A DNA stretch of 64,000 bases from Escherichia coli. GTDB lineage: Bacteria > Pseudomonadota > Gammaproteobacteria > Enterobacterales > Enterobacteriaceae. Within the stretch, counting starts at the first letter, position 1, and every line of letters starts with the position of its first letter. The notes beneath the pieces were generated by a model. That model did no database searches and was not told the DNA's origin. It saw only the letters and a program-made list of their open reading frames with translations. Below are positions 61,452 through 61,515 of this stretch, in pieces. The stretch lies in the NCBI RefSeq assembly GCF_051903065.1, contig NZ_CP178438.1, one strand, 5' to 3'. The translations under genes were made by a program, and so were the position numbers.

Positions 61452-61515
61452 AACCCTGTTTTCCTTGCCATAGACACCATCCCTGTCTTCCCCCACATGA
61501 TGTGGGGGTTTTTTT
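61452..61515 (+). ncRNA. cpxQ: Probable CpxQ sRNA (cpxP 3'-UTR-derived) including the cpxP terminator
   Basis: The 3' UTR ends in hairpin cccccacatgatgtggggg followed by a T-run; the assignment is positional and from memory. Confidence 0.45.

Follow-up and report, generated by a model that had tools for sequence, protein, structure and literature searches.

The 3′ untranslated regions (3′UTRs) of cpxP and glnA in the 64-kb stretch of DNA analysed here (the window) end in two known 3′UTR-derived, Hfq-dependent base-pairing sRNAs, CpxQ and GlnZ, a reading to which we give a probability of about 95%. Both RNAs are already known at these sites and there is nothing new in their presence, so the finding is an ordinary one; as textbook examples of 3′UTR-derived sRNAs, they carry little weight as a discovery. 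The reading was obtained by sequence analysis, namely from where the RNAs lie, how closely they match the characterised ones, their terminators, their conservation across genera and the complementarity of their seeds to published target sites, together with stem covariation in the case of CpxQ. Processing, Hfq dependence, induction and target repression in this particular strain are what we infer from the literature. The features of both loci are collected in Table 1.

Table 1. Features of the window relevant to CpxQ and GlnZ, with other non-coding RNA matches.
Feature	Position	Strand	Basis or remark
Window gene content	64 kb		23S/5S rRNA, then spf, csrC and glnALG, then cpxRA-cpxP-fieF; E. 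coli chromosome
Spot 42	13587-13705		Rfam gathering score
CsrC	14734-14987		Rfam gathering score
glnL ORF	19995-18946	-	Downstream of glnA terminator
Rho-independent terminator of glnA/GlnZ	20084-20108	-	Terminator scan; U6 tail 20089-20084; identical in K-12
GlnZ sRNA, 85-nt O157-type (class I) form (= EsrF)	20084-20168	-	100% identity to O157:H7
GlnZ seed UAGUUGCCGUGGAAACUU, nt 41-58	20111-20128	-	Common to K-12 GlnZ; directly before terminator
First GlnZ stem-loop, CCCGGCG-CAACAA-CGCCGGG	20132-20151	-	Terminator scan and fold; missing from K-12 form
glnA stop codon TAA	20171-20169	-	
glnA CDS	20169-21578	-	469-aa ORF; RefSeq annotates matching DNA as glnA
ES222	21762-21869		Rfam gathering score; glnA upstream intergenic region
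STnc370	23759-23827		Rfam gathering score
SECIS_3 element	38702-38760	-	Rfam gathering score
CpxR-box-like direct repeat TTTAC-N5-TTTAC	60855-60869	.	Upstream of cpxP; read directly
cpxP CDS	60949-61449	+	ORF; RefSeq annotates matching DNA as cpxP; homologues named CpxP
cpxP stop codon TAG	61447-61449	+	
CCCUG/UUUU block	61454-61462	+	Spans CpxQ 5′ end as annotated; putative site of RNase E cleavage
CpxQ sRNA, 58 nt	61459-61516	+	57/58 identical to K-12 cpxQ b4716
Single-stranded 5′ seed of CpxQ (R1 region)	61459-61471	+	Approximate boundaries; unpaired in MFE fold
Small internal 5-bp hairpin, CpxQ nt 14-30	61472-61488	+	Predicted; overlaps second conserved C/U-rich region
Rho-independent terminator of cpxP/CpxQ	61490-61516	+	Terminator scan; U8 tail 61509-61516
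ES036	63721-63762		Rfam gathering score

For cpxP, a first-pass annotation of this DNA had described a strong terminator hairpin with a T-run at the end of the 3′UTR and had judged the tail consistent with CpxQ, and both points are borne out. The hairpin CCCCCACATGATGTGGGGG (61490-61508) has 8 pairs, 6 of them G-C, around a loop of 3, and runs directly into T8 (61509-61516), which gives an 8-bp stem with a long U tail, a putative 3′ end for Hfq binding. At the orthologous position in the K-12 MG1655 RefSeq record, an ncRNA, cpxQ (b4716, 58 nt), is annotated directly after cpxP, and the window departs from it at a single position in the terminator loop (61501, A in the window and C in K-12). 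The RNA lies on the cpxP strand, directly 3′ of that gene (both +). With the 5′ end taken from the K-12 annotation, the sRNA occupies 61459-61516, so the span first proposed for it, 61452-61515, placed the RNA correctly but began 7 nt too early and stopped 1 nt short. The predicted fold leaves the first 13 nt free, followed by a small invariant hairpin and the terminator. No sigma-70-like promoter was found near the CpxQ 5′ end by promoter scan, which is weak evidence against independent transcription. CpxQ is reportedly the subject of studies by Chao and Vogel in 2016 and by Grabowicz and colleagues in 2016.

The window sequence is also the common form of this RNA. Of 5426 matching E. coli RefSeq records, 4098 carry the 84-nt stretch around CpxQ without a single difference, and the exact 58-mer of the window occurs in 32 of the 81 Enterobacteriaceae sequences examined, where it is the modal sequence. 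The loop variant CAUGAUG is found in the window, in most E. coli and in most Enterobacteriaceae, and CAUGCUG of K-12 is a minority variant.

The claims made for glnA held up equally well. The minus-strand 3′UTR does end in a hairpin, GCCCATCTCTGCATGGGC (20107-20090), followed by T6 (20089-20084), and the tail does correspond to a GlnZ-type sRNA, as K-12 carries an annotated ncRNA, glnZ (b4836, 194 nt), in the glnA 3′UTR. Since the stop codon ends at 20169 and the T6 tract at 20084, the 3′UTR, and with it GlnZ, is the 85 nt from 20168 to 20084; of the earlier span of 20075-20168, the start at 20168 can be kept and the end at 20075 overshoots by 9 nt. The RNA lies in the glnA 3′UTR on the glnA strand, its terminator stands before glnL, and it contains both the seed UAGUUGCCGUGGAAACUU and a GCCCAU..AUGGGC terminator with a U tract. 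The K-12 form of GlnZ (194 nt, class III, with a REP insertion) is not matched along its full length, the alignment being confined to the seed and the terminator. The window instead has the 85-nt O157-type UTR, and the 181 nt around it match E. coli O157:H7 PV15-279, like many other genomes, at 100% identity. Just downstream of the GlnZ terminator, a TATAAT overlaps the palindrome TGCACTAAAATGGTGCA (20017-20038, -); together they may be the promoter of glnL with a site of the NtrC type, and many of the metagenome glnA loci have a comparable GCAC-N-GGTGC element past the terminator.

Three types of glnA 3′UTR have been described in E. coli, the K-12 type of 197 nt, the O157 type of 85 nt and the O111 type of 230 nt (PMC9731577), of which the K-12 and O157 types are also named classes III and I (Walling et al., 2022; 10.1101/2022.04.01.486790). 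All of them occur among E. coli genomes, where a query of 181 nt gave match spans of 181, 326 and 293 nt. In an evenly spaced listing of complete E. coli genomes, the short type accounts for about half, the O111 type for about a sixth and the K-12 type for about a quarter. GlnZ as found in K-12 is not the most frequent form in the species, roughly half of the complete genomes having the short one.

The O157 form was first reported as an 85-nt RNA called EsrF that starts at the U beside the stop codon (Jia et al., 2021; PMC8092317), and the glnA 3′UTR RNA of the window could be EsrF in the sense of that study, namely a primary transcript from a separate promoter within the last part of glnA, with induction by high ammonium, activation of flhB via GGGAUUUAG and promotion of motility. 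We regard this as an unlikely account of the RNA. It is favoured by the identity of the window sequence to O157:H7 and by the presence of GGGAUUUAG, reported to bind flhB (PMC8092317), at 20134-20126 (-), where the motif starts in the 3′ arm of the first GlnZ stem-loop; the 85-nt length and the 5′ U also agree with the RACE result (PMC8092317). However, a strict consensus scan of both strands of 19800-20400 yielded no sigma-70-like promoter, which is weak evidence, and re-examination of O157 found low-nitrogen induction, RNase E processing from the glnA mRNA and repression of sucA, glnP and aceE (10.1101/2022.04.01.486790; PMC9731577). Moreover, the part conserved across genera is the seed with the terminator and not the GGGAUUUAG stretch. 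The EsrF and GlnZ roles are not mutually exclusive, and we entertain, as a rather improbable idea on which the present evidence is neutral, that in class I strains one 85-nt RNA does two jobs, the conserved seed repressing sucA, glnP and aceE under nitrogen limitation and the lineage-specific stem-loop/linker GGGAUUUAG, which K-12 GlnZ lacks, acting on flhB and motility. If this were true, the three E. coli 3′UTR types would differ in their regulons.

The identification as GlnZ agrees with its target complementarity. The published targets of GlnZ are sucA, glnP and aceE (Miyakoshi et al., 2022; PMC9731577). Computed against K-12 target sequences rather than those of the window genome itself, the seed forms 13 contiguous pairs with aceE -105 to -91, including C-99 (z = -3.4 against mononucleotide shuffles), 10 pairs with glnP -22 to -11, just upstream of the Shine-Dalgarno sequence as published, and 10 pairs with sucA -48 to -27, around -40. 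Position C-99 of aceE has been validated by compensatory mutation (PMC9731577). U41, the base at which a change to G weakens aceE repression in O157 GlnZ, is present in the window. When 40 nt of K-12 GlnZ were used as the duplex query, the predictions were dominated by GC-rich pairings outside the seed.

Conservation of the GlnZ seed was followed in metagenome contigs, which were scanned with a degenerate DNA pattern encoding only the last eleven GlnA residues and the stop codon; because the selector covers nothing beyond the stop, the resulting sample is unbiased toward the UTR. The 80 glnA loci obtained comprise 58 enterobacterial-like ones (80% identity or more across the 100 C-terminal GlnA residues) and 22 that are more distant. 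In 53 of the 58, UUGCCGUGGAA(AC) is followed after a few bases by GCCCAUC-N4-GAUGGGC-U6, and this seed-terminator module sits anywhere from 11 to 153 nt past the glnA stop; it was found in none of the 22 distant loci. Across 40 distinct metagenome sequences, the seed core UUGCCGUG is invariant and the GAA that follows it nearly so, and the terminator GCCCAUC...GAUGGGC is conserved in all 53 loci. The other five enterobacterial-like loci consist of three cut contigs (one of the O111 type), one K-12-like class III locus and one locus (L106; contig Ga0075011_10023420; GlnA 93% identical over the C-terminal 100 residues) in which the GlnZ terminator is kept and the seed is replaced by CUUGUCACAGAAACUAA. 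The first 70 nt past the glnA stop in L106 may reflect natural loss or divergence of the GlnZ seed.

For CpxQ, a search with the CpxP protein returned only near-identical E. coli proteins among the best 120 matches listed and was unsuited to a diverse alignment. Loci were taken from 80 species genomes chosen solely by their CpxP protein (71-100% identity; single-protein genome scan), which together with the window gave 81 sequences, and 78 of the loci allowed an alignment over their whole length. In 81/81 sequences the anchor CCCTGTTTT(T)CCTTGCC stands after the cpxP stop and the CCCUG/UUUU block at the CpxQ 5′ end is kept, and CCCUGUUUU(U)CCUUGCCAUAGACACCAUCCCUGUCUUCCCC follows the stop codon in every locus fetched. 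Across the 78 species loci, all Enterobacteriaceae, CpxQ nt 1-35 are 100% identical, whereas the cpxP CDS reaches 81% (68% when third codon positions are taken alone) and the DNA between the CpxQ terminator and fieF 45%. The single-stranded seed regions of CpxQ are hence more conserved than the coding sequence that precedes them. In the terminator stem, two pairs vary between genera in a compensatory manner (A-U/U-A/C-G and C-G/U-A/G-C), and 96% of cells are paired, versus 43-61% when the partner columns are slid. All 5 pairs of the internal hairpin are invariant, and it therefore gives no covariation evidence either way. Upstream of cpxP, the TTTAC-N5-TTTAC repeat is the reverse complement of GTAAA-N5-GTAAA and lies inside a block (60840-60899) that is 96-100% conserved across 78 species; we presume it to be a CpxR box, given its likeness to the Cpx regulon consensus. 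The CpxQ and GlnZ stretches are both kept across genera, far beyond chance, while their flanks are not, and the alignments show purifying selection at the nucleotide level on the non-coding seeds of both RNAs.

The targets reported for CpxQ are nhaB, skp, agp, ydjN, fimA and cfa (PMC9438474; PMC4817254). In the predicted duplex with cfa, C5-C6-U7 of CpxQ (61463-61465) face G-129, G-130 and A-131, with z = -3.7 against mononucleotide shuffles. The cfa and CpxQ positions have been mutated in both partners, each single mutation reducing regulation and the compensatory pair restoring it only partly (Bianco et al.; 10.1101/271551). Duplexes of CpxQ with nhaB (z = -1.2) and skp (z = +0.2) were no better than shuffles in a prediction that allows large loops and ignores accessibility, and the same held, by the same kind of prediction, for the cpxP 5′ region of the window (z about 0).

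It could be argued that both stretches are plain intrinsic terminators at the ends of ordinary 3′UTRs with no trans-acting role. Canonical terminators do end both stretches and no Rfam family reaches its threshold there, but a terminator would not account for the 35 nt upstream of the cpxP hairpin, which are invariant in 78 species while synonymous sites vary, nor for the 11-18-nt glnA seed, which is kept at a variable distance from the stop in many genera. Furthermore, each of the two seeds can pair with target sites that have been mapped by mutation, and published genetics, including compensatory mutations, supports a role in trans (PMC9438474; PMC9731577). We therefore hold this view to be very improbable and retain the assignment to CpxQ and GlnZ.

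An Rfam scan had been proposed in the first-pass annotation as a check, and it gave no family at gathering score at either sRNA site (Rfam 15), which taken literally is the lack of a covariance-model match that the annotation had named as refuting. Even with E allowed to rise to 10, none of the matches was to a family bearing the name of either RNA, though the window differs hardly at all from the RNAs as published, and for this reason the outcome is uninformative and does not speak against either RNA. The permissive scan also returned families such as RyhB, NsiR1 and anti-hemB, which were set aside as terminator-driven noise. Models built for the purpose gave a single match each in the 64 kb. 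The CpxQ model, built from 23 distinct non-Escherichia sequences, matched 61459-61516 (+) at 92.2 bits (E 3e-20), and the GlnZ model, built from 40 distinct module sequences with the window and Escherichia left out, matched 20132-20084 (-) at 65.6 bits (E 1e-14); the next best covariance-model matches in the window reached at most 12.8 bits, and 12 bits for the CpxQ model.

Two families of Rfam nevertheless align with these sites below their thresholds. Hrs1 of Erwinia amylovora (RF02628) covers the CpxQ site at full length (61444-61516; 44.5 bits, E 1e-7, gathering 56.4), with the match on the minus strand, opposite to cpxP, and a consensus that begins with A7 and a hairpin, that is, a reverse-complemented terminator. 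The Erwinia hrs1 gene shares the orientation of cpxP and fieF, between which it is located, and its RNA is Hfq-dependent, has been seen by northern blot and ends in a Rho-independent terminator (PMC4070566). Given the A7-hairpin consensus versus the same-strand hrs1 of that study, the Hrs1 family appears to be CpxQ modelled on the wrong, antisense strand. Ysr49 of Yersinia (RF02766) aligns with the stretch from the glnA stop to the terminator (34.1 bits, E 5e-5, gathering 95), and its consensus, GCCGUGGAAACUUUU followed by GCCCAU..AUGGGC-U5, corresponds to the GlnZ seed and terminator. A gathering-threshold Rfam scan of 12 metagenome glnA loci gave no Ysr49 match, so that it is the alignment that carries the link of Ysr49 to GlnZ. 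Judging from these comparisons, Hrs1 and Ysr49 are most likely the CpxQ and GlnZ orthologues under older names. Both sRNAs escape automated annotation: in the PGAP-annotated E. coli records that we inspected, cpxP/fieF or glnA are the only features given for these stretches, and the likely cause is that Rfam 15 seems to contain no family for either RNA. Elsewhere in the window, four tandem naRNA4 (RF02564) matches about 92 nt apart (49451-49794, +) and a fifth 9 kb away (58639-58716, -) probably represent a REP/BIME cluster.

The CpxQ locus is also a site of phage integration. In E. coli YJ1 (NZ_AP023224.1; L089), a P2-like prophage of about 16 kb (integrase, Cox, Ogr) lies between cpxP and fieF and is flanked by a 47-nt direct repeat (20027-20073 and 35915-35961 of L089) that equals CpxQ nt 15-58 plus ATC, which identifies the 3′ end of CpxQ as the attachment site. 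That the cpxP 3′ region is conserved as a phage attachment site, or as a cis element of fieF, and not as an sRNA is scarcely credible despite this repeat, because conservation also covers CpxQ nt 1-14 and the upstream CCCUG, outside the repeat, and the DNA from terminator to fieF is poorly conserved, as given above. Phages typically target the conserved ends of RNA genes rather than cause their conservation. Integration restores an intact CpxQ and leaves a partial copy beside fieF. E. coli genomes contain some 670 additional partial copies of the 3′ part of CpxQ, similar junctions (TTTTTTTTATCAAT..ACTTA) follow CpxQ in loci L003, L008, L013, L016, L024, L038 and L047, and the window carries an empty attachment site at 61473-61519. 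The cpxP-fieF site is known for Wphi1, a P2-type phage, in E. coli W (PMC3032704).

With CpxQ and GlnZ as the preferred reading, a course of events can be proposed for both RNAs. CpxR would activate cpxP transcription and the mRNA would end at the intrinsic terminator, upon which an RNase E cut just past the cpxP stop codon would free the 58-nt CpxQ, consistent with the reported release of CpxQ from the cpxP mRNA by RNase E cleavage (PMC9438474). Hfq would then bind and protect CpxQ, whose single-stranded conserved regions would repress target mRNAs such as nhaB, skp, agp, ydjN, fimA and cfa by pairing with them. Similarly, NtrC-dependent induction under nitrogen limitation and RNase E- and Hfq-dependent processing have been reported for GlnZ (PMC9731577; 10.1101/2022.04.01.486790). 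Under nitrogen limitation NtrC would drive glnA transcription, a part of the transcripts would stop at the 20108-20084 terminator, and the 85-nt 3′UTR would be set free by RNase E as GlnZ. The seed, directly upstream of the terminator, would pair with sucA, glnP and, in E. coli, aceE, and the expected outcome is less 2-oxoglutarate consumption and less glutamine import.

As regards the source of the DNA, the 25 kb from 39001 to 64000 have a match of about 100% in only one of 5426 complete E. coli genomes, that of ECNB21-M121 (from meat), while the next genomes listed, including O55:H7, show 98.8% identity and only 18 records reach at least 99%. With just one such genome, the window belongs to a sparsely sampled E. 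coli lineage.

To compare the two RNAs with the known systems, CpxQ of E. coli K-12 (b4716) and of Salmonella occupies the same locus, 3′ of cpxP and before fieF, on the same strand and with the same length of 58 nt, and the K-12 and window forms share the terminator and the invariant 5′ 35 nt. For GlnZ, the likeness is closest to the O157-type GlnZ/EsrF, an 85-nt RNA whose first base directly follows the glnA stop and whose seed lies immediately before the terminator, as in the window; there is no sequence difference between the two, although the window host strain is not O157. K-12 GlnZ shares with the window the parental gene, the seed GUUGCCGUGGAAACUU, the terminator and the downstream glnL promoter region. 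In the K-12 form, however, the seed stands at the 5′ end and is separated from the terminator by about 150 nt including a REP element, as described for this REP-containing class (10.1101/2022.04.01.486790), whereas GlnZ of the window has the CCCGGCG...CGCCGGG stem-loop upstream of the seed and is without the REP element.
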